A stretch of 64,000 nt of DNA, taken from contig JBCCHQ010000008.1 in the NCBI GenBank assembly GCA_039028735.1, positions 6,955-70,954 of the forward strand, written 5' to 3'. The DNA comes from Planctomycetota bacterium. Lineage in GTDB: Bacteria > Planctomycetota > UBA8108 > UBA1146 > JAJFFE01. Position numbers and translations under genes: made by a program. The notes under the pieces are model-generated. The model saw nothing but the letters and a program-made list of their open reading frames with translations. It was not told the origin of the DNA and did no database searches. Below are positions 2,522-54,637 of the stretch, piece after piece (within the stretch, counting starts at the first letter, position 1; the number at the start of each line of letters is the position of its first letter).

Positions 2522-2649
2522 CGCTCCCCGTCCACAACCGGGCCGGACGATCGATGGTCACTCCCCCCCGTCGACTTGCAGAACTGCAACGAATCTCACT
2601 TTGAGAACTGCCAACCCCAGCGCGCTACGGCAAGCATTCTCGCAAGAGG

Positions 2650-2677
2650 TTGGCTCTGGCAACTCTCGCCGTACAAT
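2650..2677 (+). promoter_or_regulatory. Sigma-70-like promoter candidate TTGGCT-N16-TACAAT upstream of giant gene
   Basis: Lies in a 237-nt lower-GC leader, ~85 nt upstream of ATG 2759. Confidence 0.35.
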
Positions 2678-2758
2678 TACGGGTCGTACTCTATGGGTCG
2701 AATCATCAGTGCAACAAGATACTCGAACTCCGGGATTCACGTTCCGAGGAGGAGCTCC

Positions 2759-13893: not shown

Positions 13894-14209
13894 TGGACAC
13901 ACTCCGTCCTAGCGCTTTGTAGAGGGATTGCCTGCGAAGAGGGCGCACGGCTTTCGCAATGCTTTGAGAGCGTGCGGTCGCAGCCCAACAGCTTGGCTGC
14001 TGGTTAGACCGTGGCGTGGAGAGGCGCCATCACCCGCTTGCTTGGCGGTGCCAGACAATTTGGGGGATCCATCTTAGCACTCGACCGCAGCAGCCCAAAT
14101 CAAAGCCCGCACGAAGTGACGAGAGCGCAACTTACGAAGCACTCCGCAAACGGCCAGACGAGCGGGATGTGCCCCGGCCAGAACGCCAGCAAAGTCGAAA
14201 CCTGGGGCC

Positions 14210-14889: not shown

Positions 14890-17361
14890 CTAGCAGCTGC
14901 TGGGTGACGGGCTCATGCAAGGCGTGAGCCCGTCCGCCGTCGCGTCGCTGCCGCACGCCGGATAGGGCGCCTGCGGCGCCGCGGAGCTCGGCACGAACAG
15001 AAAGTTCAGGAGCTGCACCGCATCGAGGATGTTGAGCGCCCCGTCGTCGCCAATGTCTGCGGCATCGGGGCACGCCAGGACTTGCCCCAGAAACAACGCT
15101 CCCAGGATCAAGACGGCATCATTGAGGGCCACCCCCCCATCCCCGGACACATCGCCGCGCAGGAATCGGTCTTGACCACCTTGGCCACGATTGAAGAGCA
15201 CAGCGACGGCGTCCGAATCGCGGCACGCAACGGCAAGATCAATTTGGCCGTCGCCGTCCAGGTCACCACTAGCAACGGCCGACGGCCACGCCCCCACGCC
15301 GAAACTCTGCACTGGAGCAAACGTACCCGAGCTCGATTCGAAGACGGCCACGGGCGCCTCGAGAATCGACAAGGCAACGACGTCACGACGGCCGTCGCCG
15401 TCGACGTCCACAGCCAACAAGTCTTGCTGTGCCCCACCCATGATCTCGACTCCACTGCTGAAGAACCCTCCAGCGCCGTCACCTGAGAGCAATCGTAGCC
15501 GCGGCGTCTGTAGGCCACTCGCCGTTGCGAGGTCCAAGATCCCGTCGCCGTCGAAGTCACCGCTAACAACGTCGAAGCCTACTTCCGGTAGCGTCATGAT
15601 TACGGAAGGCATCTGCAGCGTGCCGCCCGTCGTGCCGGCGAAGTAGTACAGTCTGGGGTCTCCCGAGAGCGTTCCTTGCGTCAAGACGACGACATCGAGC
15701 GCGCCGTCGTTGTTGTAGTCCCCAGTCGTAAGGTCGACAGGGATCAACGGCGCGCTGTAGTTGACCGGTGCCCCAAAACCACCGCCGCCGTTCCCTGGCA
15801 CGACGATCAGAGCATCGTTGCCCGGATCCAGCGCAAGGACGTCGAGGTTCCCGTCCCCGGTCACGTCCGCAACTGCCAGCGACGCGAGCGAGAAACCGGT
15901 CGCGATCGCCGCGCCCACGGAGAAGCCACCCAGGCCGTCCCCATTGCCGACAACGATCGAGCCCTGCACGGCTTCCAACATGACGACGTCGAGGTCCGCG
16001 TCTCCGTCGAGATCCGCCAGCGCCACTTCGGTGGGGTCCAGCGGTGCGAGATTGACCTGACTCGTCGTATACGCGCCGGGCACCGACTGCCGATGCAGCA
16101 CTAGCTGGTTGACTTCGGTCACTGCCACTACATCGACATTTCCGTCGTTGTCGACATCGCCAACGGCCGTCCCCACCGGCTGGTCGCCACTCGGCAAGTA
16201 GAGAGGTTGCTGCAAGGCACCAGAGCCGCTGCTCTTAACGGTCGCCACCGCATCGATTCCCAACAACACCAGCAGATCGTCGTTCCCATCCGCATCGAGG
16301 TCACTACTAGCAACCTCCAACGGCAGCTGCCCAACATCCAACTCGCTGACGTTCGAGAAACCGCCGGCACCGGTACCCAGCAGGACTGCGCCGTCGCCAT
16401 CGAAGGTGCTGACGACAACGAGATCGATGAACGCATCGCCGTTGAGGTGAACCGCATGGAGCGTGGATGCTAGCGCACCAGCAGGCACCGAGGCGCTGGA
16501 CGCGAAACCGCCGGCGCCGTCACCGAAACGAATCACAACATCGTCACTCGATGAGTTCGCGGTCGCGATGTCAATGAACCCGTCAGCGTTCAGGTCTTCG
16601 AGAATCAGGTCCTGCGGGTTGCTCCCCATGGGGAGAGCTATCGGCAGAGTCGACGAAGGTGCCAAACCGCCCGTGCCGTCCCCGAACAACACACGCACCT
16701 CATCCTGGATGCGCGCCGTCACCACGAGGTCGAGATTTCCGTCCTGGTCGAGATCGGCCAGCTGGGGCTTCCCTGGACTGGGCAACACCAGCGATGAGCC
16801 TGTCGTGAAGCCGCCGCTGCCAGTGCCCAATAGAACTTGACCTTGGTCATCTAGATTGCTGGTAACGAACAGATCGCTGACGGCATCGTTGTTCAAATCG
16901 CCGACGACCAGACCATCGGGCAGGCATATCGTCGCTGTATTCTGGCTCCACGCGAAAGAACCATCGCCGGGACCAACGAAGAGCGAAACGTTGTGGGAAC
17001 TCAAGTTGGCGGTACACACGTCGAGATTGCCATCACCGGTGAAGTCACCGACGGCGATGGCGTAGGGTTCCGTCGCCCCGGTGGCCCAGAACCGACTCCA
17101 ACTGGGAAAGGCTCCGCTGCCGTCATTGAGGGCAACGATGATCGAGCTGAGAAAAGGGGGATTGGGGGTCTGCACGGACGCGACGACATCCACGCAACCG
17201 TCGCCATTGAGGTCGCCGGTCGCCATCGCCGTCACACAAACGATACAGACGGTGTCTCCGAGGGGAAACGTTCGAAACGTCTCGAATTCAACCGCGCTGC
17301 TCGACGACGAGAGACTCACGAATGTCGAGAACACGACTACGGCCAGCGGAGACTTGCGCAA
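14890..17361 (-). CDS. Secreted FG-GAP/VCBS-type beta-propeller repeat protein with C-terminal dockerin-like module
   Basis: TTG start with an in-frame stop 5 codons upstream and a purine-rich RBS. Signal peptide is MRKSPLAVVVFSTFVSLSSSSSA. There are >10 repeats of the form GD(L/F)NGDGxxDxVxx. The dockerin-like tail is 14893..15165 (FLRGDVSGDGGVALND...DAADIGDDGALNILD...CGSDATADGLTPC). Confidence 0.8.
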   Translation of the reverse strand: MRKSPLAVVVFSTFVSLSSSSSAVEFETFRTFPLGDTVCIVCVTAMATGDLNGDGCVDVVASVQTPNPPFLSSIIVALNDGSGAFPSWSRFWATGATEPYAIAVGDFTGDGNLDVCTANLSSHNVSLFVGPGDGSFAWSQNTATICLPDGLVVGDLNNDAVSDLFVTSNLDDQGQVLLGTGSGGFTTGSSLVLPSPGKPQLADLDQDGNLDLVVTARIQDEVRVLFGDGTGGLAPSSTLPIALPMGSNPQDLILEDLNADGFIDIATANSSSDDVVIRFGDGAGGFASSASVPAGALASTLHAVHLNGDAFIDLVVVSTFDGDGAVLLGTGAGGFSNVSELDVGQLPLEVASSDLDADGNDDLLVLLGIDAVATVKSSGSGALQQPLYLPSGDQPVGTAVGDVDNDGNVDVVAVTEVNQLVLHRQSVPGAYTTSQVNLAPLDPTEVALADLDGDADLDVVMLEAVQGSIVVGNGDGLGGFSVGAAIATGFSLASLAVADVTGDGNLDVLALDPGNDALIVVPGNGGGGFGAPVNYSAPLIPVDLTTGDYNNDGALDVVVLTQGTLSGDPRLYYFAGTTGGTLQMPSVIMTLPEVGFDVVSGDFDGDGILDLATASGLQTPRLRLLSGDGAGGFFSSGVEIMGGAQQDLLAVDVDGDGRRDVVALSILEAPVAVFESSSGTFAPVQSFGVGAWPSAVASGDLDGDGQIDLAVACRDSDAVAVLFNRGQGGQDRFLRGDVSGDGGVALNDAVLILGALFLGQVLACPDAADIGDDGALNILDAVQLLNFLFVPSSAAPQAPYPACGSDATADGLTPCMSPSPSSC

Positions 17362-22489: not shown

Positions 22490-22740
22490 CACCGGTACGG
22501 TTCAGGCGTTAGCTATTGTCTCAGAAGGCGTTGGGACACTCGACGTGAACCAGCTCTGAGCCCGCTGCCCGCTAACGACACCGCGGTCAGCGGCGAATCA
22601 ACCAGTTCGCGTGGCGCCGCCACGGCTCGTTGGATAGAGTCGCTCTCGGGTCGAAATCCTGCAGAGCGATTCTGCAAAACTCGAGGTTCCTGGGGTCCCC
22701 CAGCAGAGAGCGCTGTGCATCACGCACAGTAGGAGATGTC

Positions 22741-23598
22741 ATGTTCAAGTTGTCTTGTGCGCTCACAGCGGTGGCAGCGATGTCGCTCCTTGCAGCACCC
22801 TGCTACTCGCAAGGGGCCAGCGCTTCGTTCGCCTTTCCTGACCGCGAAGTGCCAGTGACCGGCACGTTCTTCTGCGACCTGGCGATTACCAACGATACGG
22901 ACCTTCAGGGGTTTCAGACATCGATCACTTGGGATCACACACAACTCGAGTTCCTGAGTGTGACCGGGATCGGCACGGATGCGGAAGCCGCCCTGTTCGC
23001 CGTCAATCCCAGCTTGATGCTTGGTTGTGAACCGTACGAGTTCTTCCTACCTGTTACCGTAGGCCCGATCGCGGCGACCAATCGATCGCGGCAACTGACA
23101 GGAGTCGTCTTCGACTTCGTGCCACCGTTCGGTAGCGTGGTGCTGGCGCCGGGTACCGACATGACCGCTTTGCGCTTCCGTTTCGAGTCGATCGGCGGCG
23201 CCCTGGGCGCAACGACCGACTTGCTGTTCGACACTGCACCTGGAGACAATTCTGTCATCGTACAGGGTTTGTCGATCATCGTCGGGCTCGATGACGCGAC
23301 GCTGACGTTCTCAGAACCGTTCCTGCGCGGCGACACCGATGGCGACGGCACCGTGAATCTCGTCGACGCGATCTTGGTGTTGAATTACTTGTTCAACAAC
23401 GGCGTGGCTCCGACCTGTCTCAACGCCGCCGACGCCAACGACGACGCGACTACGGGTATGATCAACACGGCCGACGCGGTCTACATACTCAGCTATCTCT
23501 TCAACGCAGGGGCCACGCCGCCGGCGCCTTTTGGTAGCTGCGGGGCGGACCCAACCCCGAGCCCGCTCAGCTGCGGCGGGCCAACGGCATGCCCGTAG
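22741..23598 (+). CDS. Secreted protein with N-terminal cohesin-like module and C-terminal dockerin-like module
   Basis: AGGAG lies 5 nt before ATG 22741. Signal peptide is MFKLSCALTAVAAMSLLAAPCYSQG. A cohesin-like core reads VPVTGTFFCDLAITNDTDLQGFQTSITWDHTQLEFLSVTG. The dockerin-like tail is 23320..23595 (FLRGDTDGDGTVNLVD...DAADANDD...CGADPTPSPLSCGGPTACP). Confidence 0.75.
   Translation: MFKLSCALTAVAAMSLLAAPCYSQGASASFAFPDREVPVTGTFFCDLAITNDTDLQGFQTSITWDHTQLEFLSVTGIGTDAEAALFAVNPSLMLGCEPYEFFLPVTVGPIAATNRSRQLTGVVFDFVPPFGSVVLAPGTDMTALRFRFESIGGALGATTDLLFDTAPGDNSVIVQGLSIIVGLDDATLTFSEPFLRGDTDGDGTVNLVDAILVLNYLFNNGVAPTCLNAADANDDATTGMINTADAVYILSYLFNAGATPPAPFGSCGADPTPSPLSCGGPTACP
22816..23319 (+). other. 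Cohesin-like module (type-I cohesin signature G-x-x-x-x-I-x-[YW]-D-x-x-x-LE-[FI]-[LI]-x-V-x-G)
   Basis: The segment GFQTSITWDHTQLEFLSVTGIG aligns with the clostridial cohesin motif GIANCDFVYSYDPNVLEIIEIEPG. Confidence 0.5.
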
Positions 23599-23619: not shown

Positions 23620-24681
23620 TTACGGACAAACCGGCGCGCAGCCGCTGGTCGGCTGGCAGTTCATACCGAGAACGTGCGGGGGTCCCGCGCTGAACGACCA
23701 GGCGATCAGATGAACGGCGTCAACGAGGTCGACAGAGTTGTCGCCATTCGCATCGAGAAGCATCAGGTTGTTGCCCTCGTTTGCAGAGGCCGAGTCGCAT
23801 GGCAACACCTGCTGTGTTACGCCAAACAGATAATCCAATAGCGAAACAGCATCGCTCAACCCAACAGCGCCGTCGGTGTCGAAGTCGCCCGGAAGAAAGT
23901 CGCCGCCGCGCGTGCCAACGATCTTCAGCAGCGACTGCTGCTGGCTACCAATCGCTGCTCTCGTTTGGAGGCAGATCGTCGCAGTGAAGTTGTCGGCATC
24001 GTGAAAAATCACTTCGCCGACAGTATCGCGCGGGTGGTTCGTGACGGTGCCTGCGTACGTAGCGTAGCTCGGAAGCCAGCCGGTGACGGTGTTGTTGATC
24101 ACTCGAATTCCGACATGATCGTTCGCGAAGAACAAGCCCTCGAAGAAGATACCATTGGGACGAGCAAGACGGAGCTTGTTGCCAGTAATCGTCAGGGTGA
24201 CCGTCTCATTGAACGTCGCGTTGACGGCACCGCTCTGCGGGTTGAGTCCTTGGGTCACGGCATCGTAGTCACCGCTGCGTGCGACGTCACCTGGAATCGC
24301 TGCGCTCGGCAGCTGCGTCGGGAAATTGACAGTAGTCCCTGGGCACCGAGTGCAGTTGTACAGGTAGCCGGCGCCATTGCCGACTTGCGTCGAGAATGCG
24401 TCGGGCCCCGTGAAGCTACCCGGAAACTGACCAGAGATCAGAATCGCACCACCCGGCCCGATCGTCCCGTTCCAGCCAAAGCCAAAGAAATCTCGCAACT
24501 CGTACTGATTGCCGGACACGTGGAGCACCGAGAACCACTCGGTGAATGTCGTTGGATTGCCACCTTGGGTGTTTTGCATATAGTACATGCCACGCGGGTT
24601 GATTTGCGCCGTGGCCGGCGGAGCTCCCACTAGCAGAAAGCAGCCCAGCAGGGCACCTATCGTCCAACTTCGCCGTTGCAT
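23620..24681 (-). CDS. Secreted protein of unknown N-terminal fold with C-terminal dockerin-like module
   Basis: Start at the ATG giving MQRRSWTIGALLGCFLLVGAPPATAQ, with GAGGAG 7 nt upstream. The dockerin-like tail is 23623..23898 (FLPGDFDTDGAVGLSD...DANGDNSVDLVD...CQPTSGCAPVCP). Confidence 0.75.
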   Translation of the reverse strand: MQRRSWTIGALLGCFLLVGAPPATAQINPRGMYYMQNTQGGNPTTFTEWFSVLHVSGNQYELRDFFGFGWNGTIGPGGAILISGQFPGSFTGPDAFSTQVGNGAGYLYNCTRCPGTTVNFPTQLPSAAIPGDVARSGDYDAVTQGLNPQSGAVNATFNETVTLTITGNKLRLARPNGIFFEGLFFANDHVGIRVINNTVTGWLPSYATYAGTVTNHPRDTVGEVIFHDADNFTATICLQTRAAIGSQQQSLLKIVGTRGGDFLPGDFDTDGAVGLSDAVSLLDYLFGVTQQVLPCDSASANEGNNLMLLDANGDNSVDLVDAVHLIAWSFSAGPPHVLGMNCQPTSGCAPVCP

Positions 24682-24946
24682 CGCGTATCTCCTCGTTCGT
24701 CGCTCGTATTGGCGCTCGTTTTCCAGACCTAGCCAGGCACCAAACATAGCAATTCGGAGGGCGTACCAACAATGGCAGTTGCACGCAACTTCATGCGTGG
24801 AATGATTCAAACACAGGAAAATGGGCCAGCGGCGTCGTAGAAAGCGGACAGGCTTTGCCCGCGGTCCACGGCGCAACGGACACTCTGTCGAGAGCGATCC
24901 AACCAACACGGCGCGATCAACGCGCCGCGAGAGGACCTATCACCGT

Positions 24947-27811
24947 ATGAACCGTCAATTCACGGCACGAGCGATCGGGTGCGGGTTGGCACTGACCTTC
25001 ATGTATCTTGCGCTACCGGCGGCAACTTACGCCAACAACGCTGCGCTGCAGAGGCTGCAGGAGGCCTACCCAGGAGTACGCGTCCTGAGACTCGAGGACC
25101 GCATGGCGATCTACGGTAAGCCCATGACTCGCGCGGCGACGCCCGACGCGGCCGCGGCGGCGTGGTTGGCCAACCACTCGCAGACCTTCGGTGTACCGGG
25201 ATTGGATCTACGTTTGCGCCGCAGCTACGATCTCCTCGGCAACGGTCTGGTCGTCTATCACTACGAGCAATGGATCGGCACGACGGCCGTCGAGTACGGC
25301 GCCGCTCGCATCGCCGTGCGCCCTGGCCCAGACGCGGCCGCCGTCGTCTACGCCGCAGCAACGTTGGCGGAGATCCACGACGAAGCGCTGGCACCTATCC
25401 GTATCAGCAGTGACCAAGCCTCGGCAATCGTCGCAAAGCATCGCTTCTTCGGCAATCTCGAGGAGTACTCGACACCGCAACTGTCGATCATCAAAAGCTC
25501 ACCGGTCCTCGACTCGGAAGGCGCACCGCTGCCGCGCCGTACTTGGCGCCTGACGGGCAGCGACTCGTCACTGACGCAGCCTCGCGCGTTCACGTTTCAC
25601 ATCGACGCGGAAACAGGCGCTCTCCTCGAGGCTCGGTCTGAGATTCACAATCTCGATGTCTCTGGCACGGTGAGTGGCTTGGCAAGCCCCGGCGACCGTC
25701 CAGACACCGCGGCGAACCCTCCGGTCAGCGTGCCGTTGGCGTCTGCCGAAGTGGCCATCGGCGCCACGACTGCAATCAGCGATGCCGCGGGTGCGTTCAC
25801 TGTACCGTTCGGCGGCACCGGCGCAGTGAACGTCGACGGCGTGCTGCGCGGCCCTTGGGTCGAGGTCCTCACGCAACAAGGTACGCCCGTCACGACAACG
25901 CTACTGGCGACACCACCGGGACCTGCGAACCTACTTCTCAACGACACACCATCGGAGTTCACGACGGCACAGGTCAACGCATTCGTGCACGTCAATCAAG
26001 CGCATGACTTCTTCGCGCAACGGGCGCCAACTTTCACCGACATCGATATTCCCCTTCCTTGCACCGTCAACGTGCCTGGCAGCTGCAACGCATCGTTCTC
26101 GAGCCTTTCGATTTCGCTGAGCTTCTTCGCCGCAGGAGGTGGTTGCGAGAACTCATCGTTCTCTGACATCGTCCAACACGAGTACGGTCATTTCGTTGTC
26201 AACCGCATTGGCCTGGCCCAAGGCGCCTTCGGGGAAGGCTTCGGCGACACGCTGTCGTTGATCTTCGCCGACGACGCGCAGCTGGCTGAGGATTTCGGTG
26301 GCCCTGGAACGGTGGGTCGAGACATCACCGGAGACAACGTCCAGTACCCGTGTCCCAGCACCGCAATTCACTTCTGCGGGGAGCTCCTCGCAGGTTGCTG
26401 GTGGGACCTCCGCGTCGCGTTGGGTGCCAGCTTGGGTAGCGCAGCCGGGCGTGACCTCGCGCAACAGTTGTTTGCGGACTGGAGCCAGCTCACCTTGGGT
26501 GGCAGCGGTTTCAACAGTGCGCACCCGATGACTGCCATCGAGTACATGATGGTTGACGACGACGACGGCAACATCGACAACGGCACCCCTCACCGCGACG
26601 ACATCTGTCTCGCATTCTCGAATCACAGCATCGACTGCCCAATCCTCCCACCCATCCTGTTCGAGTTCCCACTGGGCCTCCCGACGATGGTCAGCCCGGC
26701 AGCCACGACGACCGTTCAGGTCAGCATCGTCGAAACCACCGGAACATTGGTGCCTGGATCCGAGCGCGTTTGGTGGTCGTTGGACGGCTTCAACTTCACC
26801 GAAGGACAGCTGACCGCCCTGGGCTCGGGACTCTACGAGGGCACGCTGCCGGCAGCGATGCAGTGTGGCCGCTACCGCTACTACTTCTCGGCTGACTTGC
26901 TCGGTGGCGGGACCGAGTTGTCCGCGCCACAGCTCCCCCACTCGTTGACGGTCGCAGATGGGTTCACGGAGCTGCTGTTCGATGACATGGAAACCGACCC
27001 CGGGTGGACGGTTGGTGCGCCGACCGACACCGCGACCACCGGAATATGGACGCGCGACGATCCCATCGGCACAACTGCGCAGCCTGAGAACGACCACACC
27101 CCGACGGGCACGCTGTGCTGGTTCACTGGCCAGGGAACGCCCGGCGGCGCTCAAGGCGAGAATGACGTCGATGGCGGCCCCACCACGCTGGTCTCACCCA
27201 GTATCGATGCAACCCAAGGCGAGACGCGCATACAGTTCTATCTCATGTATGCAAACTCTACCGGCAACGCACCGAGCTCGGACGTGTTCCAGATCGAGAT
27301 CTCCAACTCTGGCGTGTTGGGTCAGTGGATACCCGCGCTCACGCTGGGCCCCGATGTCTTCTCGTTGCTTGGAGTTTGGCAGCTGTACGAACTTTGGGTC
27401 TCCGACTACGTCACACCGACGAATACGGTCCACGTTCGCTTTCGAGCCCGCGACGATGCTCCCGGATCCATCGTCGAGGCTGCACTCGATGACCTTCGCG
27501 TGGAAGTGGTCTTCTGCGACTCGACCCCATCGTTTCGTCGCGGTGACTGTAACGACGACGGCGGGGTGCAGATCGCGGACGCAGTGTTCTTGCTGTCGGG
27601 TCTGTTCGGCGGAGTAGGACTGACACCGCCATGTGCAGATGCCTGTGACGGCAACGATGACGGCAACCTCGACATCGCTGACGCTGTCTTGATTCTTGCT
27701 GCGTTGTTCTCAGGTGGTGGCCCATTGCCTGATCCAGGTATGGACAACTGTGGTGCTGACGCGACAACTGGCGACACTCTACTCGAGTGCGCGGGAGCTA
27801 CCTGCCTCTGA
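24947..27811 (+). CDS. Secreted zinc metalloprotease (HExxH: VQHEYGHFV) with C-terminal dockerin-like module
   Basis: ATG 24947 gives the signal peptide MNRQFTARAIGCGLALTFMYLALPAATYA. The HEYGH motif is at ~nt 26180. The dockerin-like tail is 27533..27808 (FRRGDCNDDGGVQIAD...DGNDDGNLDIAD...CGADATTGDTLLECAGATCL). Confidence 0.8.
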   Translation: MNRQFTARAIGCGLALTFMYLALPAATYANNAALQRLQEAYPGVRVLRLEDRMAIYGKPMTRAATPDAAAAAWLANHSQTFGVPGLDLRLRRSYDLLGNGLVVYHYEQWIGTTAVEYGAARIAVRPGPDAAAVVYAAATLAEIHDEALAPIRISSDQASAIVAKHRFFGNLEEYSTPQLSIIKSSPVLDSEGAPLPRRTWRLTGSDSSLTQPRAFTFHIDAETGALLEARSEIHNLDVSGTVSGLASPGDRPDTAANPPVSVPLASAEVAIGATTAISDAAGAFTVPFGGTGAVNVDGVLRGPWVEVLTQQGTPVTTTLLATPPGPANLLLNDTPSEFTTAQVNAFVHVNQAHDFFAQRAPTFTDIDIPLPCTVNVPGSCNASFSSLSISLSFFAAGGGCENSSFSDIVQHEYGHFVVNRIGLAQGAFGEGFGDTLSLIFADDAQLAEDFGGPGTVGRDITGDNVQYPCPSTAIHFCGELLAGCWWDLRVALGASLGSAAGRDLAQQLFADWSQLTLGGSGFNSAHPMTAIEYMMVDDDDGNIDNGTPHRDDICLAFSNHSIDCPILPPILFEFPLGLPTMVSPAATTTVQVSIVETTGTLVPGSERVWWSLDGFNFTEGQLTALGSGLYEGTLPAAMQCGRYRYYFSADLLGGGTELSAPQLPHSLTVADGFTELLFDDMETDPGWTVGAPTDTATTGIWTRDDPIGTTAQPENDHTPTGTLCWFTGQGTPGGAQGENDVDGGPTTLVSPSIDATQGETRIQFYLMYANSTGNAPSSDVFQIEISNSGVLGQWIPALTLGPDVFSLLGVWQLYELWVSDYVTPTNTVHVRFRARDDAPGSIVEAALDDLRVEVVFCDSTPSFRRGDCNDDGGVQIADAVFLLSGLFGGVGLTPPCADACDGNDDGNLDIADAVLILAALFSGGGPLPDPGMDNCGADATTGDTLLECAGATCL

Positions 27812-31157: not shown

Positions 31158-32894
31158 CTACGGGCACACCGAGTTCGTACAGGTCAGCAGGTCCGGCGTC
31201 GGCTCCGTCGCACACAGCGGAAAGGGCGCGATCGGTTGCGGCGCCAGGCCGAACAGGGCCTGAATCGAAACCACGGCATCGGCCACCGTCAAAGCCCCAT
31301 CGTCGTCGGTGTCACAAGCGCTTTGGCATGGCGCGCTGCTTCCCAGGAACAACACCTGCAAAAGGTAGGCGGGATCCGAAATGTCACGGATCAGGTCCGA
31401 GTTACAGTCACCGCGAACGAACTTAGGCGGCGGCGGCTGTTGCGGCCGCAAGTCAGCGACGCGCAGGAGGTGGTCGGACGCCTCGGAGTCAGGCGCCTGC
31501 AAACCAGCGGCGCTGAGCACAGCACTCGACATTTCCGGCGTGTACAGCACATAGTGATTCGCCGGTGCGACCACGGAGTCTGAATAGATCACGAAATCGA
31601 GCAGCCCGGGCCAGAAAGAAGAATTGTCATTGCGCCACGTGTAGGCCATTCGCTTTTCGGTTTGCGACGAAACGAGATTCACCAAGCCGGTGCCATCCCA
31701 ATCCAAAGCGACGTCCGCACCATACGTTGCTTCGTCAGCAACATCGCCAGTCAGCAGCGACGTCAACGTTGACGACAGGCCGACAAGATTCAGATCCCCG
31801 ACAACGACGATCGCGGTGTCAGCTGCGATCGTCAGGGGACCACCGCTGGCTTTGGCATCACGCACGAACGCCAAGATCTCGTCTACTTCGTCCTGCCGCC
31901 CAGTCTCGTTGCTGCAACAGGGCAAATGAGCGTTGATCAACAAAAGCTGCTGACCCAGCACCGCTGTCGTGTCCACGAGAACAGCCAGATTCCCCGATAG
32001 CGACCAAGACCCGAGGATCGCGTAGCGACTCACAACGATGCAGTCGTTGTTGTCGGCAGCCGACCAAACAGCACCACTGCCTGCATTGACCCAGGTTCCC
32101 ACCAGCGACGCCGTCTCTGCCGCGGTGTGATTGTAGATCTCTTGAAAACACCAAATGTCAGCGTCGACGGCCGAGAACTGGCGACCAAAGCGTGGTTCCT
32201 CGCCCGGGTCCCAAGGAGAATCGTTGTGCACGTTGTAGGTGGCGATGCGGAGGTCACTGGCTTGTTGACGTCCAAGTGGGATCGGTGCGGGCGGCACAGC
32301 GGTGCCTTGATCCATCGTATAGACAACGCTGCCGGTATTGGGAAGCTCATCCCCGGCACCGTCTTCGTCGCGCAAGATCAGACGCACTTGTGTTCCTGAA
32401 AACAGCGGCTGGGCGCCGTTGGGAAGCGTATCGCGACCGATACTCACCTCAAACCACGACGACGACACTGTCGGGCCCGAGCGTAGGCGTAGATCATCGT
32501 GAAACAGTGTGCTCCCGCCGCCGACATGAAACGTCCCGGTGCGGCTCCCGAAACGCCACTCGAGCTCTGCACCGATTCCGCGCACAGGCAGACCCGTCGC
32601 AGAGTTCATGTCGGTGTCGAGGTAGAGGACGAGATCGTTCCCCTCGTCGAGTTGGCTCTCGATACCCAGTTCCAATCGCAGGAACAGGAAGCGGGCATCG
32701 TCTGCAACGCTCAAGCCTGCAAAGTCCAATCCCGAGGGACCGGCGTCACCAGCCCCGTCGGTATGGGCCGGTAGCACCCCACCCCAGTCGAGATCACGGC
32801 CATCGACTTGGATCGGGTGTTGTTCTCCACAGGCATTTCCGCCAATGGCGAGGACAACCAGGAGCACGGTAAATGCAAGGTGTTGCGTCGACAC
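31158..32894 (-). CDS. Secreted endonuclease/exonuclease/phosphatase (EEP)-family protein with C-terminal dockerin-like module
   Basis: GTG start with signal peptide MSTQHLAFTVLLVVLAIGGNACG. The EEP motif is LRIATYNVHNDSPWDPGEEPRFGRQFSAVDADIWCFQEI. The dockerin-like tail is 31161..31421 (FVRGDCNSDLIRDISD...DTDDDGALTVAD...CATEPTPDLLTCTNSVCP). Confidence 0.8.
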   Translation of the reverse strand: MSTQHLAFTVLLVVLAIGGNACGEQHPIQVDGRDLDWGGVLPAHTDGAGDAGPSGLDFAGLSVADDARFLFLRLELGIESQLDEGNDLVLYLDTDMNSATGLPVRGIGAELEWRFGSRTGTFHVGGGSTLFHDDLRLRSGPTVSSSWFEVSIGRDTLPNGAQPLFSGTQVRLILRDEDGAGDELPNTGSVVYTMDQGTAVPPAPIPLGRQQASDLRIATYNVHNDSPWDPGEEPRFGRQFSAVDADIWCFQEIYNHTAAETASLVGTWVNAGSGAVWSAADNNDCIVVSRYAILGSWSLSGNLAVLVDTTAVLGQQLLLINAHLPCCSNETGRQDEVDEILAFVRDAKASGGPLTIAADTAIVVVGDLNLVGLSSTLTSLLTGDVADEATYGADVALDWDGTGLVNLVSSQTEKRMAYTWRNDNSSFWPGLLDFVIYSDSVVAPANHYVLYTPEMSSAVLSAAGLQAPDSEASDHLLRVADLRPQQPPPPKFVRGDCNSDLIRDISDPAYLLQVLFLGSSAPCQSACDTDDDGALTVADAVVSIQALFGLAPQPIAPFPLCATEPTPDLLTCTNSVCP

Positions 32895-44333: not shown

Positions 44334-44636
44334 CGGGAACTCCTCTTCAGGCGCTGAGGACTACGGAGTCAACGCATTGCTTGCTGGATGGTGTACCGTG
44401 ACCGATTCGAGCCAAACAAGGGCGCCCATTCTAGCTGGAAAACACCGCGAAGTCGTAGGACCAATCCGCCTGAAATGCCAGCGCAGCGCGTCGAGGGAGG
44501 TGCACAACCTGCGGGGGCGAGAGCTGTTCGTGAGATTGCTGCGCTACTGGGCGTGGTAGCTGCTTGACCACGTCGATGCGGGATCCTAACCTGCGGGAAG
44601 TCCCGCGCCTTTCTGCAGAGAACCGAGGTGAAGCCC

Positions 44637-47126: not shown

Positions 47127-47266
47127 CGAGGACGTCGCGGGGTCGCAGATACCACGGTCGCTGGCGATGTTAGACTTTAGGGACCTACTACACGTCGTTG
47201 CGGAGAAGTCCCGGGGATCTCTCCTCTGGGGCAACTCTGTCGATCGAACGCAACTCTGAGGAACCT

Positions 47267-48963: not shown

Positions 48964-50178
48964 CTAGCAGCCGGTCACTTGGCAATCGAGCGTGTCCGGA
49001 GACAGATCCGGACCACAGGTCTCGACGATCGGTGGGCCACCGCCAAACATCGACAGCAGCAGCGCCAACGGATCGGCAATATTGACGCCACCATCGTCGT
49101 TCATGTCACCGGCGTCCATGCAAAGCATGGGGCCGTTGTTGAACAGGAAGTTCAGCATGTTGATCGCGTCGGCGATGTTGCAGGCGCCATCGAGGTTGCT
49201 GTCACCACGCAAGAAGGAATCACCAGCTGCAGCGATCGTCACGTCGGCGATCGAGGCTTGGCCAACGTCGTTGAGTACGGTTACTTGGGTCGAACCTGGA
49301 GTCGTCGCCACCACGTCGCACGTGATGTTGACGAAGTCGGTTCCGTAGAGCGCCGTATCGAACGGCACCAAGAAAAGCATGAAGACGACAGCCTGGCTGC
49401 CTCCCATGGTGATGTCACAAGGAATCGGTCCGTTCGCAGCAATGTAGGCGCTGAGACCAGCTCCCGGGTCGATACTAGAGATGGACAGCTGAGTTGGATC
49501 CACAGTGACCGTGAACATCGTCAAGACCAAGGGCATTGTCGACGTCACATCAACCGGCAGCGACACCGGCTGGCCGATCGTCGCTGTCGCGTCAGCGATG
49601 GTGTAGTCGCCAAAGCCCATCGGTACCGGCAGCGGCGGCTGCGGCGGCTGTGGGATCTGGCTTGGATCGATCGGCGTCCCCCCTGGGAAGTTGACCGTGG
49701 CCGTTGAGACGAGTCCCGACATCGTATCTGTCAGAGTCGCAGTCGACGTGCCGACTTGCTGCGCGATTGCCAGACAATCGACGACGACGAACTCGTCGCC
49801 GTAGACAGCCGCGTCGTAGGGAACTCCAAAGAAGAAGAACGCGTTCAGAGCAGAACCGGTGTTCGAGTCATCGCACCCGATCGGGCCGTTGGCGGCGAGG
49901 TATGCCGCGAGGCCTGCGCCCGGATTCCAGCCGGTGATGAGGATATCAGCCGGTGCCACGTTCAGCGTGAACGAGGCCTGCGACGCGATGCCAACGGAGT
50001 CGGCGGAGATCACCATCTGAAACGGCACGCCCAAATCCGATGTTGCGTCCGCAATCGTCAGATCCAGCGTGTTCGGTCCCCCACCTCCGATGGGCGGCAA
50101 CGGGAATGGAATCCCCTGCCCTTGCGCTCCTGAAGTAGCCACCAGGCACAAGAACATCGTAATGGCGAGTCGTCTCAC
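48964..50178 (-). CDS. Secreted protein with two tandem cohesin-like modules and C-terminal dockerin-like module
   Basis: GTG 50178 (GGAGAGGA 8 nt upstream) gives MRRLAITMFLCLVATSGAQG. Modules lie at 49681..50067 and 49216..49614 and contain ...ASFTLNVAPADILITGWNPGAGL... and ...MFTVTVDPTQLSISSIDPGAGL.... The dockerin-like tail is 48967..49215 (FLRGDSNLDGACNIAD...DMNDDGGVNIAD...CGPDLSPDTLDCQVTGC). Confidence 0.75.
   Translation of the reverse strand: MRRLAITMFLCLVATSGAQGQGIPFPLPPIGGGGPNTLDLTIADATSDLGVPFQMVISADSVGIASQASFTLNVAPADILITGWNPGAGLAAYLAANGPIGCDDSNTGSALNAFFFFGVPYDAAVYGDEFVVVDCLAIAQQVGTSTATLTDTMSGLVSTATVNFPGGTPIDPSQIPQPPQPPLPVPMGFGDYTIADATATIGQPVSLPVDVTSTMPLVLTMFTVTVDPTQLSISSIDPGAGLSAYIAANGPIPCDITMGGSQAVVFMLFLVPFDTALYGTDFVNITCDVVATTPGSTQVTVLNDVGQASIADVTIAAAGDSFLRGDSNLDGACNIADAINMLNFLFNNGPMLCMDAGDMNDDGGVNIADPLALLLSMFGGGPPIVETCGPDLSPDTLDCQVTGC
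49216..50067 (-). other. Two homologous ~130-aa cohesin-like modules (49681..50067 and 49216..49614) separated by a Pro-rich linker
   Basis: Internal repeat TIADAT...F.(L/V).V.P..L.I.....PGAGL.AY.AANGPI.CD...VPFD.A.YG..FV. The segment FTVTVDPTQLSISSIDPG matches the cohesin signature F.Y.YDP.VLEI..IEPG. Confidence 0.5.
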
Positions 50179-50484: not shown

Positions 50485-53400
50485 CTAGGGACAGAGTGAG
50501 CCGCTGCACGAGACTCCATCGATCGTGCTATCTGCCCCGCAGCCAGAGTTCGGTTCCGCAAACTCCGGACAGGCTCCCGGGAGGCAGGTCGGGGGGAACA
50601 GCACCGTCAGCGTGTAAACGGCGTCGGCGATGTCGACACGTCCGTCGTCGTTCGAATCGCAACGGTCGAGGCAGGTAAGATTCGGCGCCGGACCTGACGG
50701 AAACAGGTGCGTAAGCGTCCGCACAGCGTCGGCAATGTTCGTTGTAGCATCGGCGTTACAATCTCCGCGCTCGAACGGCTCGGACTCGACGGCCTCGAAA
50801 CACATTCGTAGCGACCAGAACTCGATCGTACCCGTCGCCAACGGCGTCTGGTCGACCGCGCGCAACAACCACGTGCCATCTACAGTTTCACCGTCGAACG
50901 TGGACAAAGGCGTAGCACCGTCGGGAGGACGAGTACCGTTGACATCGTCGAAGCCATTGCTCCCCAAGTCGTCAATGTGTCGGCGGACTAAAGTTCCCTC
51001 GTGGGCGTACTGGCGCAACACGACGATCGTTCCGGTTGGCGACTGTAGCTCGATCCGAACATCGCCGACAAAGTCGTGCTGCATCTCCACGACCACTTCG
51101 ACGTCAGCGACTGTCCGTCCGGTCATCGAAAAACTCAGGGGTACTTCGAGCGGCGTACCATCATCGGGAACGGGCCACGGCCCCGTGGCCGTGAGCGCAG
51201 CAGAGTTGACGACCGAACCGTGGCAACTGACAGAACTGAAATCCGAGCCGGGATTGGTCGAGACGATCTCGACGACCTCGTTGTTGGCAGCGTCAATCGC
51301 ATAGAAGGATGCGACGTCGGGGGTGCCGGCTGCCGTCCACGCCAACCCAACGACCTCGCGAGTGGCACTGAGCAGCGGCGTGCGTGCACGTCGGTCGCCA
51401 GCGCTGTTGAGGACAACCGCGAATCGTTCCTCGAGGACATCGCTCTGGACGACATCGAAGAAGTCGCCCGGTCGTGCGGCAACTCCTGCGCCCAACGCGC
51501 CTCCTTCGTTCGGCGCCAGCTCGTCACCAGTCGGCGTGCCGTCGAGCCAGTAGGCGAGCAACCGATCCGCAGCCAAGTCGGCGACCCACAACCGCCCGGC
51601 CGCATCGATCGTTGCCCCTCCCGCTTCCACGAGCCCGGGCAACGCGAGTGGCGGTGTCGGAGCCGAACCGTCGAGACCGGTGATTGTCAGCTGTTCATTG
51701 ATGATCCAGTACAGCGACGTGCCGTCAGTGGCCAGCCCTTCGATGGTCGGGTTCGGTCCGAACCCACTCTGCCCAGGAGAAGTGATGCTAGCGATCTGAC
51801 TGCTGAGATCGCTGGCCACATAGCGGTAGGTAGTGCCAGGCTGTCGCTCAGCAACATAGACATGGGACCCGACGACCGCGATCGCGGCCGGATCGAGGCC
51901 AGAGAAGCTCGCCGATTGGACTTCATCGCCCCCGAGCGGCAGCGGCACGAGCACCTGAATCGATGTTGGAAGACTCTTGGAGCTCCCCACCGTGGCTCGG
52001 ACCGTGACCGTGTGAGCGCCATAGGAGAGCGGTATCGTTGCAGAGCTAGGTCCTTCGAGCACTGAGGACACGGAGCCGACAACGACACAATCGACCAGGA
52101 CCTCAACAAGATCTGAGTCCTGTACGTTCATCCACTCCACCAATGCCGTCGTGCCTTGAGGAGTGACATCGAGATCGTCCGGAGCTGCGACCAAACTTGA
52201 CGCTGGTAGGAACACCGACGAGAAACTGGCGGGACTCGCGACCCCACCGGCGACCCCGTGAACCTCGAGAACGTGCATACCGGGGTCCAGCGCGGCAGGC
52301 GGCGTATACGTTGTGTCCGTCGCGCTCAGCGCGATGATGGGACCGTTGTCGAGCCTGGCCCACGCTGCGGTGTAGTTGGCGCCTGGGGTCCAAGACCATG
52401 TGACGGTGGCACCGGTTACGGTCGCTCCCAGTCCGGTGACAGCAGGCACCGACGATGGGATCTCAACGATGCTACCTGCGACGCCAATCATTCCCCCGCG
52501 CTGACCAATCATCGATACCAGATCGTAGGCACCCGGGGCGAACGGCGCGACCAAAGCAGATTGTTGGGTCCCTTGTACCGTCAACTGCGGTTTGTCGTTC
52601 ACCAGCAGAGTGTAGAAACCACCCGCGAGCGCCGAGGCGCAGTTCACGTTGATGCCGCCACCGGCATCGACCGTGAAGAGGCAGGGAAAGAGCGGCGCCG
52701 GGTCGATGTGACCGATACTGTCGACGTCGGCGTCCGGGTTCGACGCGAAGAAGTGCGACTGCAGCCCAATCGACTCTGCCGTCATGTACAGCTGCGACAA
52801 CAAATCGCCATACGTCTGGCCAGTTTCGAAGCGAAACAAGTCGGCGGCACTCAGACGCTCAGCGCCGCTAGTCAACGAAGGGCTAGCTCGATCGAGCGAG
52901 TACCAACCCAACTCGTATGGCACGATGATTCCGGTCGCGTCGACGGCTAGACCATCGATGTTGTCATCCATGGTCAGCCCGAGCTCGGTCGCCGATTGGT
53001 AGACACTCAAGACACCGGCAGGAGTCAGCTTGTAGACACTGGCAGGGTGAAAGTTCGGCACTCCGCGCCCGACGGAGAAGTAGATGTCGCCAGTACGCGC
53101 GTGCGACGGCGTGTTGTACGTGAACGCTGCCACGTTGGCTACGTGCGGCGGGGTTCCTGACGGTCGTCCCGACAGCCCAGTGAGACCCAGCTGCTCGGCA
53201 AACAGAATCGGGGGCTCCAGGATCGCGCCCGCGGACGCCGTGTTCTCGTCGATGATCTTCATATGCGGACCTGGATCACGGCTGGTGGTCGGCTTGTCGT
53301 TCACAATGAAGATGTCGGCCTCGGACTCATCGGGTGGCTCGTTGAAGAGCGGCGTGTGAGGCAAGCCTGCCGTACGACCTGACGCGGTGCGGCGAATCGA

Positions 53401-53691
53401 AAAGAAGAAAAAGGTGTGATCAGCGCCCTCTTCGCCAAAGTCTGTCCCATACGAGATCGCGTCGACTTCCCCGGCAAGACCCAAGCTCGACAGCCGATCG
53501 GAACCGAAAGTCGTCGTGGCGAGTCGCTGGCTTTCGTTATAGGTAAGGATCGTGTTCGCCGGGAGCCCCATCATTTCGGGGTTCGTGGCATGTGGCGTGT
53601 CTTGCAGTATGTAACTGTGGAAGTCGGCGTGGGCATTGACGGTGAGTAGGCACAGTAGCAGCAGCACGCAAGAACTGTGGCGGGTCAGCAT
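50485..53691 (-). CDS. Large secreted protein: N-terminal unknown region, Fn3-like and NHL/beta-propeller-like segments, proprotein-convertase P-domain, C-terminal dockerin-like module
   Basis: ATG 53691 (GGGAGG upstream) gives MLTRHSSCVLLLLCLLTVNAHA. The P-domain reads GDVRIELQSPTGTIVVLRQ. The dockerin-like tail is 50488..50775 (FERGDCNADATTNIAD...DSNDDGRVDIAD...CGADSTIDGVSCSGSLCP). Confidence 0.75.
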   Translation of the reverse strand: MLTRHSSCVLLLLCLLTVNAHADFHSYILQDTPHATNPEMMGLPANTILTYNESQRLATTTFGSDRLSSLGLAGEVDAISYGTDFGEEGADHTFFFFSIRRTASGRTAGLPHTPLFNEPPDESEADIFIVNDKPTTSRDPGPHMKIIDENTASAGAILEPPILFAEQLGLTGLSGRPSGTPPHVANVAAFTYNTPSHARTGDIYFSVGRGVPNFHPASVYKLTPAGVLSVYQSATELGLTMDDNIDGLAVDATGIIVPYELGWYSLDRASPSLTSGAERLSAADLFRFETGQTYGDLLSQLYMTAESIGLQSHFFASNPDADVDSIGHIDPAPLFPCLFTVDAGGGINVNCASALAGGFYTLLVNDKPQLTVQGTQQSALVAPFAPGAYDLVSMIGQRGGMIGVAGSIVEIPSSVPAVTGLGATVTGATVTWSWTPGANYTAAWARLDNGPIIALSATDTTYTPPAALDPGMHVLEVHGVAGGVASPASFSSVFLPASSLVAAPDDLDVTPQGTTALVEWMNVQDSDLVEVLVDCVVVGSVSSVLEGPSSATIPLSYGAHTVTVRATVGSSKSLPTSIQVLVPLPLGGDEVQSASFSGLDPAAIAVVGSHVYVAERQPGTTYRYVASDLSSQIASITSPGQSGFGPNPTIEGLATDGTSLYWIINEQLTITGLDGSAPTPPLALPGLVEAGGATIDAAGRLWVADLAADRLLAYWLDGTPTGDELAPNEGGALGAGVAARPGDFFDVVQSDVLEERFAVVLNSAGDRRARTPLLSATREVVGLAWTAAGTPDVASFYAIDAANNEVVEIVSTNPGSDFSSVSCHGSVVNSAALTATGPWPVPDDGTPLEVPLSFSMTGRTVADVEVVVEMQHDFVGDVRIELQSPTGTIVVLRQYAHEGTLVRRHIDDLGSNGFDDVNGTRPPDGATPLSTFDGETVDGTWLLRAVDQTPLATGTIEFWSLRMCFEAVESEPFERGDCNADATTNIADAVRTLTHLFPSGPAPNLTCLDRCDSNDDGRVDIADAVYTLTVLFPPTCLPGACPEFAEPNSGCGADSTIDGVSCSGSLCP

Positions 53692-53850
53692 CGAAGTATT
53701 CCTCCCTGATTGTCCCTCGTAGGTAGCTGCGCGACGCCGCGATCGACGCATGGCACCTATCTCTACCCTACTTGCGTGTGCAGTCAGTTTCTGGACAAAG
53801 AACCTGCGAGATTTGTGCAGATCGAGCCCTAAGTCCTTGCCCGCAAAGCT

Positions 53851-54447
53851 CTACGCGTCTTCGATGATTCCAGCTGGCACTCCTCGCTTGCGTAGCCGGC
53901 TACGCAGGCGCTGCCAACGCTTCTCCGCGGATACAGTCGTTAGCTGGAGCAGGGTCGCGACTTCTTTGTGCCCGAGCCCCTCCAACCCGCGATAGATCAA
54001 CAGGCGACGATCTTCGTCACCTAAGTCAGCGACTTCATCGACGAACAACTGTAGCTTCTCGTCTCGAACCACGCGCGACGAGATACTCGTCGCTTGGTCG
54101 GCGACCCGCTCGAGCCCTTCTCGAGTCCCTTGAAAGACGGATTCGCCACGCGCCTTGAGACCACGCAGCGCCTCTCGCAATACGTTGTTTGCGATCCCGA
54201 ACAGCCAGCCGCGAAAGGGGCGCTTCTTGTCGTAGTTTGCGAACCCCAGATAGGCGCGACAGAACACTTCCTGCAGGACGTCCTCAGGATCGATCGAGCG
54301 GCGAAGCCGGGCGCCAATGTGCAGGCGAGCCCACGTGTAGATAGCCGGTGCAACGGGATCATACAGTTCGGTGAACCCACCCATCGGTGGCACACCTACG
54401 CCCCCACCCTGCGGTGGACGCGGATCCGGCATCAGCTCCTCAGGCAT
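53851..54447 (-). CDS. ECF (group IV) RNA polymerase sigma factor
   Basis: Preferred start gives MPEELMPD with GGAGG 6 nt upstream. Regions 2 and 4 include DVLQEVFCRAYLGFANYD and GLGHKEVATLLQLTTVSAEKRWQRLRSRL. Confidence 0.8.
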   Translation of the reverse strand: MPEELMPDPRPPQGGGVGVPPMGGFTELYDPVAPAIYTWARLHIGARLRRSIDPEDVLQEVFCRAYLGFANYDKKRPFRGWLFGIANNVLREALRGLKARGESVFQGTREGLERVADQATSISSRVVRDEKLQLFVDEVADLGDEDRRLLIYRGLEGLGHKEVATLLQLTTVSAEKRWQRLRSRLRKRGVPAGIIEDA

Positions 54448-54637
54448 GCCTACCTCCAACAGTAGCGAAATCAGAGAACCCAGAGCTTCGATCGTAGCGC
54501 CCGCCCAGCCGCAGTGCAACGAACGGCGCCCCCCCTTGATGCGAGGACGCGCTTCTGGGCAGCATGGGGCAGCGAACGCCGCAACTCGGGTGCGATCGCA
54601 GACCAGCAGTCAGACAACGTCGTGAGAATACGCAATC

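Follow-up and report, generated by a model that had tools for sequence, protein, structure and literature searches.

In adaptor scaffoldins, for instance ScaB of Acetivibrio cellulolyticus and ScaA of Ruminococcus flavefaciens, a signal peptide is followed by tandem cohesins with a Pro-rich linker and by a C-terminal Ca-binding dockerin. A cohesin and a dockerin are also found together in Amy4 of R. bromii, whose dockerin binds its own cohesin (PMC4611034). For freshwater Planctomycetes a "planctosome" has been proposed as an untested model, in which the anchor combines a lamin-tail domain (LTD) with a cohesin and the adaptor contains hyalin repeats (Andrei et al. 2019, PMC6461901). Here we analyze a gene from a 64,000-nt stretch of DNA (hereafter, the window) of a metagenome-assembled genome (MAG) of a Planctomycetota bacterium (contig JBCCHQ010000008.1, positions 6,955 to 70,954). 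The gene (48964..50178, minus strand, stop codon 48964-48966) encodes a putative secreted protein of 404 amino acids (aa) with two cohesin modules and a C-terminal dockerin. A sequence-only reading of the window had suggested a small scaffoldin or adaptor, and the layout of N-terminal cohesins and a C-terminal dockerin agrees with this suggestion. On balance, we lean towards the view that the gene encodes a cohesin-dockerin adaptor that would bind co-encoded exoproteins, plug with its own dockerin into another cohesin and form branched assemblies.

The 404-aa product is 100% identical to MEM7164408.1 in the NCBI database ("hypothetical protein AAF581_03035", from a Planctomycetota MAG), for which the same start has been annotated and no Pfam domain has been precomputed. 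Translation begins at a GTG codon (50178), preceded at a distance of ~8 nt by the Shine-Dalgarno sequence GGAGAGGA. Residues 1-20 (MRRLAITMFLCLVATSGAQG, 50119..50178, minus strand) exhibit a charged n-region, a hydrophobic core and an A-Q site, as read directly from the translation; the A-Q site is common to nearly all members of the family, and the signal peptide is of the Sec type and probably cleaved at this site. Horizontal transfer or an assembly artefact was considered and appears unlikely, given the even GC content of the window and the existence of orthologues and one paralogue.

Cohesin modules and dockerin tail

Module 1 encompasses aa 36-167 (49678..50073, minus strand) and module 2 encompasses aa 187-320 (49219..49620, minus strand). 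They align without gaps over 111 aa with 41% identity (E-value 1e-26), a similarity that is, at the sequence level, far beyond chance. Two homologous modules of ~130 aa had been claimed for the region 49216..50067, which corresponds to aa 38-321 and correctly covers both of them, and all of the strings quoted in support (TIADAT, PGAGL.AY.AANGPI.CD, VPFD.A.YG, FTVTVDPTQLSISSIDPG and PSQIPQPPQPPLPVP) are present. In orthologous proteins, the first modules are 65-71% identical to one another and only 34-37% identical to the second modules, which indicates that the duplication is old and that both copies have been maintained.

Module 1 alone has no match in Pfam, and the hidden Markov model (HMM) of the family module assigns it 83.6 bits. 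Module 2 is matched by the Pfam Cohesin profile (PF00963) with an E-value of 8e-5 to 2.5e-4 and 21.7-23.3 bits, slightly short of the 24.1 bits of the curated cut-off, which a relative clears (L006:1227-2000, 26.7 bits; L numbers denote loci of relatives and P numbers proteins). A word-indexed homologue search with an alignment of eight modules gave no match at all and missed even the query proteins, and nothing was found with this alignment among the PDB sequences. An exhaustive search of 1.84 billion cluster representatives with the profile of the same eight modules identified 58 proteins at E <= 1e-3, and four of the weaker matches (P0039, P0043, P0045 and P0061) are Pfam-certified multi-cohesin proteins (E-values 7e-18 to 1e-53). 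A family profile of 43 sequences, compared with all PDB sequences, reported almost exclusively cohesins and dockerins (the exceptions being two weak EF-hand matches, E-values 0.56 and 0.76), with a CipA fragment (3kcp, 1.5e-7), the CelS dockerin (1.3e-6) and the cohesins 2ccl_A, 1ohz_A and 1anu (~0.007-0.015) among the matches. The cohesin alignment with 3kcp spans the hallmark "YDPNVLEI..EPG" as well as "FDTAVYPD". The family thus escapes routine annotation, falling below the cut-off of Pfam and being "hypothetical" at NCBI; a dedicated model would expose cohesin partners in genomes that now reveal only orphan dockerins.

Modeling of the whole protein with AlphaFold2 (four sequences in the alignment) yielded two confident β-sandwiches (predicted local distance difference test, pLDDT, 75-94 in module 1) and a poor tail, while a 219-aa construct comprising module 2 and the tail (43 sequences) was predicted with pLDDT 95.6 and a predicted template modeling (pTM) score of 0.78. 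The best 32 Foldseek matches to the latter model are all cohesins, with 2xdh as the top match to module 2 (E-value 9.6e-9, template modeling score 0.63); the two-module model is matched best by 3l8q, a type II cohesin dyad (E-value 1e-12). The predicted structure exhibits the nine-stranded flattened β-sandwich (jelly-roll) characteristic of cohesins. The comparison of predicted structures therefore bears out the cohesin-like fold claimed for the modules, with which the profile-detectable homology agrees, and on these two grounds both modules are cohesins, closest to type I. In addition, the family has features of its own: a nearly invariant Cys residue, a short helix linking strand 6 to strand 7, and, in the connection of strands 4 and 5, a 10-residue helix located in PG.GL..Y...NG.PP.CD, the motif of highest conservation.

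The modules are separated by the Pro-rich linker TPIDPSQIPQPPQPPLPVP (aa 168-186, 49621..49677, minus strand), read from the translation and modeled with low pLDDT. Its residues I170, D171, P172 and Q174-P182 are near-invariant in orthologues, and at the sequence level the linker is conserved beyond what would be expected of a passive spacer. The segment IDPSQIPQPPQPPLP is near-invariant although the orthologues are only 62-66% identical overall, and a similar motif, IPFP.PP, comes after the signal peptide.

The C-terminal tail (aa 321-404, ~84 aa, 48967..49218, minus strand) consists of two EF-hand-like Ca loops and a Cys-rich extension. The loops, of 12 residues each (DSNLDGACNIAD at 49168-49203 and DMNDDGGVNIAD at 49072-49107, minus strand), retain the ligands D1/N3/D5/N9/D12, and each is followed by a helix according to direct reading; in the AlphaFold2 model, residues 150-162 and 183-193 of the construct form tail helices. 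Pfam Dockerin_1 matches the tail with an E-value of 0.007-0.018, and E < 0.01 is reached in 28 of the 43 family members. A duplicated segment of ~22 residues, each with a Ca loop (D1, N/D3, D5, N/D9, D12) and a helix, together with the fold and the profile match is what defines type I dockerins (PF00404), and the tail, previously described as dockerin-like, is by sequence and model a Ca-binding type-I-like dockerin.

In the cohesin carriers, the extension after the second helix contains four invariant or near-invariant Cys residues. Since C203 and C219 (numbering of the 219-aa construct) are absent jointly in four cargo tails, i.e. in the TIG-repeat protein of the window and in cargo proteins of L005, L006 and L012, we infer that C203 pairs with C219 and C168 with C214 in disulfides that would hold the extension against the dockerin. 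A third, interdomain disulfide between C69 of the module and C148 in the dockerin "DGxC" was considered and found to be unsupported: C148 occurs in 21 of the 43 members, its position normally belongs to the hydrophobic core, and no co-variation was observed. Two tail subtypes occur in the window and in L001, L005, L006 and L012 (exemplified in the window by 48967-49218 and 12080-12331): the carrier subtype reads P[LI]xExCxxDxTxDxLPxC, with "DGxC" in half of the carriers, and the cargo subtype has a Pro-rich PxPxPFPxCGxDPT, with RGDCN...CxxxCD in some proteins. As a small, confidently predicted unit, a cohesin joined to a dockerin with a putative disulfide clasp could serve in the engineering of protein assemblies.

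Dockerin-tailed neighbours and the proposed adaptor role

An HMM of 85 tail positions, run on the proteins of the window, matches eight of them besides the carrier itself (E-values 1e-9 to 1e-22, mostly near full length), in agreement with the eight other dockerin-bearing proteins counted earlier. The adaptor interpretation draws on the signal peptide, the two cohesin folds, the dockerin with intact Ca sites and the same tail on eight neighbours, and has precedents in Amy4 (PMC4611034) and in the planctosome proposal (PMC6461901). Two cohesins in one polypeptide and eight dockerin-tailed proteins are encoded within the same 64 kb. Cohesin genes of other genomes also adjoin dockerin-tailed genes at most loci with sufficient flanking sequence (L001, L005, L006 and L012), in keeping with the co-occurrence that the adaptor idea was expected to entail; at L009 no tailed gene is present within its 7 kb. 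The protein carries a Sec signal for export and consists of two type-I-like cohesin β-sandwiches joined by the Pro-rich spacer, with the dockerin last. According to the adaptor interpretation, each cohesin would bind, in a Ca-dependent manner, the tails of co-encoded exoproteins, which include a metalloprotease, a nuclease/phosphatase, a P-domain protein and adhesin-type proteins of the TIG, FG-GAP and SdrD-like kinds. Its own dockerin would plug another cohesin, possibly that of a further copy of the protein or of a single-cohesin relative. With two cohesins per dockerin, branched extracellular or surface assemblies with non-carbohydrate cargo may arise, and with no dedicated anchor visible they would perhaps be networks and not scaffoldins anchored in the classical way. 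Should modules and tails indeed bind, one plug-and-socket system would organise much of what this bacterium secretes in the way of proteases, nucleases and adhesin-like proteins, and the hypothetical planctosome would acquire a concrete and testable version.

Several points weigh against the adaptor interpretation. The motif CD(V/I)I(I/V)YPD, which aligns with FDTAVYPD of CipA and contains a dockerin-contacting Tyr, is missing from both window modules, which read CDITMGG and CDDSNTG at this position. Every cohesin carrier found ends in a dockerin, hence an assembly has no obvious end point. No anchor (SLH, lipobox, LTD or transmembrane helix) was found on any cohesin-bearing protein and no anchoring scaffoldin in the window; likewise, none was seen in the 43 single-module relatives that were aligned or in those multi-module relatives that were read. 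The ~5-residue linker between cohesin and dockerin, short and constant in the family, together with the pTM of 0.78 suggests a rigid unit and a fixed arrangement in cis. The adjacency of cohesin genes and dockerin-tailed genes in other genomes may be due to chance, tails being so frequent in these genomes; in the window itself, dockerin genes make up 9 of ~31 genes, and their adjacency to the cohesin gene could be equally fortuitous. Finally, the association of single-cohesin relatives with a sigma factor gene (see below) hints at a role other than scaffolding.

The features of the tail bear on a different possibility, namely that the cohesins recognise only the carrier-type dockerin, in cis or in trans, and that the protein forms homo-oligomers, chains, a matrix or an auto-capped state and recruits no cargo. 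Carrier tails indeed constitute a distinct subgroup: an HMM built from them assigns 94-107 bits to carriers and 33-85 bits to cargo tails, and carriers that were absent from its construction also score high (L007, 103 bits; the second copy in L006, 101 bits; L001, 97.6 bits). Carriers share P[LI]xExC, as opposed to the Pro-rich PxPxPFPxCG of cargo tails, cohesin and dockerin are joined by a linker both constant and short, the unit is modeled with pTM 0.78, and self-aggregation has a precedent in Amy4 (PMC4611034). On the other hand, the subgroup could signify either a specificity of its own, such as type II dockerins have, or only the common descent of the whole protein, and canonical docking in cis may demand a linker longer than ~5 residues. 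Loop positions 10-11, the presumed recognition positions, are Ile-Ala in both repeats of the carrier tail and are similar (Ile/Leu-Ala) in several cargo tails, which provides no distinction between the two classes. Given this likeness and the Amy4 precedent, the binding of the protein to itself is as plausible as the binding of cargo; exclusive self-association, however, seems to us rather unlikely.

Turning to the tailed proteins individually, the largest is a 3252-aa protein with 29 TIG repeats according to Pfam (2576..12334, plus strand; tail ~12080-12331, HMM E-value 4e-19), which matches the NCBIfam "choice-of-anchor Z" repeat NF058597 with an E-value of 4.5e-280 and whose dockerin tail is devoid of two of the four conserved Cys residues. 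We assume that "choice-of-anchor" relatives in other phyla end in sorting signals, in which case the tail of the TIG protein would occupy the position expected of the anchoring device. This observation fits the adaptor interpretation and is also compatible with an alternative in which the tail is a general surface-attachment tag for a non-protein component of the envelope and the modules bind some other ligand, such as a glycan or the surface of a host or prey. The fact that all cohesin carriers are themselves tailed and the divergence of the window modules at the YPD motif would also fit. Nevertheless, the best structural and sequence matches of the modules are specifically dockerin-binding cohesins, and individual genomes and gene neighbourhoods contain both cohesins and dockerins; we regard this alternative as very unlikely.

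The remaining tailed proteins comprise a 488-aa SdrD_B-like protein (12436..13902, minus strand; Pfam SdrD_B 9.5e-8, Dockerin_1 2.2e-4; tail ~12439-12690, HMM E-value 4e-13), an 823-aa FG-GAP repeat protein (14890..17361, minus strand; FG-GAP_3 4.8e-78; tail ~14893-15165, 5e-22), a 578-aa member of the endonuclease/exonuclease/phosphatase family (31158..32894, minus strand; Exo_endo_phos 2.5e-6; tail ~31161-31421, 3e-19), and a 1088-aa protein with a proprotein-convertase P-domain (50485..53751, minus strand; P_proprotein 7.6e-13; tail ~50488-50775, 61 bits, 6e-18), whose gene lies directly upstream of the cohesin gene on the same strand. The product of 24821..27811 (plus strand; tail ~27533-27808, HMM E-value 1e-21) contains the motif HEYGH...GAFGEGFGD, read directly; it shows weak matches to PepSY (propeptide-like, before HEYGH) and M36, no library match above the cut-off, and is likely, from its sequence, a secreted zinc metalloprotease of the gluzincin type (M4/M36-like). 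Neither this protein nor the P-domain protein found a match in the search of PDB sequences.

Two tailed proteins have no assigned function. One is encoded by a 322-aa open reading frame (ORF) at 22630..23598 (plus strand; ~285 aa from the likely start at 22741; tail ~23320-23595, HMM E-value 2e-21), in which Pfam Dockerin_1 scores 26.4 bits, over the cut-off. A cohesin in its body, suggested by the hallmark-like string LQGFQTSITWDHTQLEFLSVTG, was evaluated and is not supported: the module HMM match is weak (E-value 5.6e-4), and neither Pfam nor hhalign nor the PDB search detects one. The module HMM revealed no further cohesin-bearing ORF in the window beyond one weak lead. The other protein (23620..24909, minus strand, likely start 24684; Dockerin_1 0.0029) has a divergent tail at ~23623-23898 (HMM E-value 3e-9).

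No carbohydrate-active domain was detected by Pfam and NCBIfam in any of the eight tailed proteins, so that the cargo was rightly called non-cellulolytic. The idea that the dockerin genes constitute one locus did not hold: they are spread over 50 kb among genes for a YchF GTPase, a redoxin, glycosyltransferases, a methyltransferase, an M1 peptidase and others, housekeeping genes included, and form neither an operon-like nor a dedicated locus. Amid them lies a gene for a 678-aa caspase-domain (Peptidase_C14) protein (29063-31099, plus strand). A 550-aa PhyH-dioxygenase and double-cupin protein (47198-48850, plus strand) is encoded between the cohesin gene and the gene of an 832-aa protein (44628-47126); its place is taken by a glycosyltransferase gene at L001, the orthologous locus.

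Single-cohesin relatives and the ECF sigma factor gene

Close relatives of the window protein are few: an orthologue (P0002, 66% identical), a paralogue from the same MAG (P0003, 62%) and a fragment (P0004). Most of the 58 relatives are ~250 aa long and possess, after the signal peptide, a single cohesin, a ~5-residue linker and the same tail. The single-cohesin relatives (P0009-P0062) exhibit 27-45% identity and keep the CD(V/I)I(I/V)YPD motif, and one relative has three cohesins. A scan for this motif in 185,579 species genomes and in JGI metagenomes found three loci (2 + 1), of which the named ones are from Planctomycetota, and a homologue search with the cargo tail alone retrieved only 13 short fragments. 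One metagenome protein of 494 aa (P0005) consists of five tandem Cys-containing dockerins and nothing else, and could cross-link cohesin carriers.

At eight distinct loci, the gene that immediately follows a single-cohesin gene, in the same orientation, is an orthologous gene of ~1000 codons (L005:9749-13722, equivalent to L010 and L011; L006:1227-5775; L007; L008:148-1311; L012:6001-9903; L013:5001-8940; L014:5001-6119; L015:5001-8814). In five loci the two reading frames overlap or lie almost end to end, and in L014 and L015 a gap of ~110-140 nt separates them. The ~1000-aa proteins match between loci with E-values of 1e-110 to 1e-163 and combine a sigma domain of the extracytoplasmic function (ECF) type, one transmembrane helix near aa 210-245, and a large extracytoplasmic region of ~750 aa with CarboxypepD_reg/Big_1/MG4-like β-sandwich repeats. 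In L006, a second cohesin-dockerin gene comes after the sigma gene. The genes with several cohesins do not belong to this cassette, neither the window gene nor its L001 orthologue nor the gene with three modules in L016, and the window gene is a multi-module derivative. The cassette points to a regulatory link that the sequence-only reading had not foreseen, and provides a handle on the regulation of the system.

Two sigma factor genes are also found in the window. A 780-aa fusion of the same architecture (sigma, transmembrane helix, CarboxypepD_reg/Big_1) is encoded at 39630-41972 (plus strand), 7 kb from the cohesin gene, and is a distant paralogue of the cassette protein, with similarity (E-value 1e-13) only in the sigma and transmembrane part. 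A plain ECF sigma factor (53851..54519, minus strand; Pfam Sigma70_r2, Sigma70_ECF and r4_2) lies directly upstream of the P-domain gene and the cohesin gene on the same strand and may be functionally linked to the latter. Divergent from this sigma gene is a gene for an 805-aa Ser/Thr protein kinase with PEGA and formylglycine-generating-enzyme-like (FGE-sulfatase) domains (54638-57055, plus strand).

These associations bring up the possibility that the protein is an accessory of signalling, either as an output controlled by the sigma factor or by acting outside the cytoplasm as partner or sensor for an ECF sigma factor tethered to the membrane, and is no structural scaffold. The cassette in eight distinct loci, the plain ECF sigma gene that heads the strand of the cohesin gene, and the fusion 7 kb away are consistent with this idea, whereas the position of the multi-cohesin genes outside the cassette and the remote relationship of the window fusion are at variance with it. 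A two-block promoter shared by the cohesin genes of the cassette and the window gene was not found in excess over shuffled sequences, a scan for sigma-70 promoters found none, and a paper on the reclassification of ECF sigma factors mentions neither cohesin nor dockerin. Membership in a regulon would, in any case, be compatible with a scaffold function, and we find a purely signalling role distinctly improbable. We also speculate, as a quite unlikely scenario, that the cohesin-dockerin pair is more than a construction kit and is part of a cell-surface signalling device: an ancestral single-cohesin protein, co-transcribed with the tethered sigma factor, would sense jointly with it how heavily loaded the dockerin-tagged exoproteins, or a bound substrate, are or in what state they are, and tune the expression of the secretome, the window gene being a multivalent, cross-linking offshoot and the tail a phylum-wide surface-retention tag that replaces sorting signals.

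Comparison with described cohesin-dockerin systems

The putative adaptor shares with the adaptor scaffoldins ScaB and ScaA the order of its elements, and the predicted dyad resembles 3l8q. It differs in that its presumed cargo is not carbohydrate-active, that it comes from a Planctomycetota MAG and not from Bacillota, and that no anchoring scaffoldin is encoded in the window. Relative to these scaffoldins, only the window protein has the 10-residue helix between strands 4 and 5, the conserved Cys, the probably disulfide-rich extension of the dockerin and a last linker of ~5 residues. The system is not a cellulosome, as it has neither carbohydrate-active cargo (plant-cell-wall-degrading GH, CE, PL or CBM proteins) nor a known anchor, and with its non-carbohydrate cargo it is at most scaffoldin-like. 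The link to the cell that an anchoring scaffoldin, SLH domain or sortase signal would provide is missing from the window and from the relatives read. Of the cellulosome-like surface complex proposed by the sequence-only reading, the adaptor layout and the non-cellulolytic cargo thus stand, but no device for attachment to the surface was found in the window.

Amy4 and the Archaeoglobus fulgidus cohesin (PDB 2xdh) both belong to a non-cellulolytic setting. Amy4, like the window protein, unites cohesin and dockerin in one polypeptide, but it is an enzyme with extra modules, whereas the window protein is purely cohesin-dockerin; 2xdh, the top structural match, has only ~14% sequence identity to the window module. 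The single-cohesin relatives P0009-P0062 possess the same module and tail as the window protein, but have one cohesin, keep the YPD motif and are mostly encoded directly upstream of the gene for the tethered ECF sigma factor.

The planctosome model comes closest in terms of phylum and composition: it likewise invokes cohesins and dockerins without cellulases, dockerin-bearing peptidases and P-domains, and an adaptor with both cohesin and dockerin (PMC6461901). The window conforms to this description, being from Planctomycetota and encoding candidate peptidase and P-domain partners and no cellulases. It differs in that the lamin-tail-domain anchor and the hyalin-repeat adaptor of the model are not seen, neither LTD nor HYR domains being present among the Pfam-scanned ORFs of the window, and in that the window protein consists of two cohesins and a dockerin only. 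The structural interpretation in the sequence-only reading was therefore right and its conceptual novelty overstated, as the planctosome idea had been published (PMC6461901), and non-cellulosomal cohesin-dockerin systems are in general already well documented. What is new here is a divergent family of cohesins missed by routine annotation, its fusion to a dockerin with a putative disulfide clasp, including derivatives with several cohesins, and the conserved pairing of a single-cohesin protein with a membrane-tethered ECF sigma factor.

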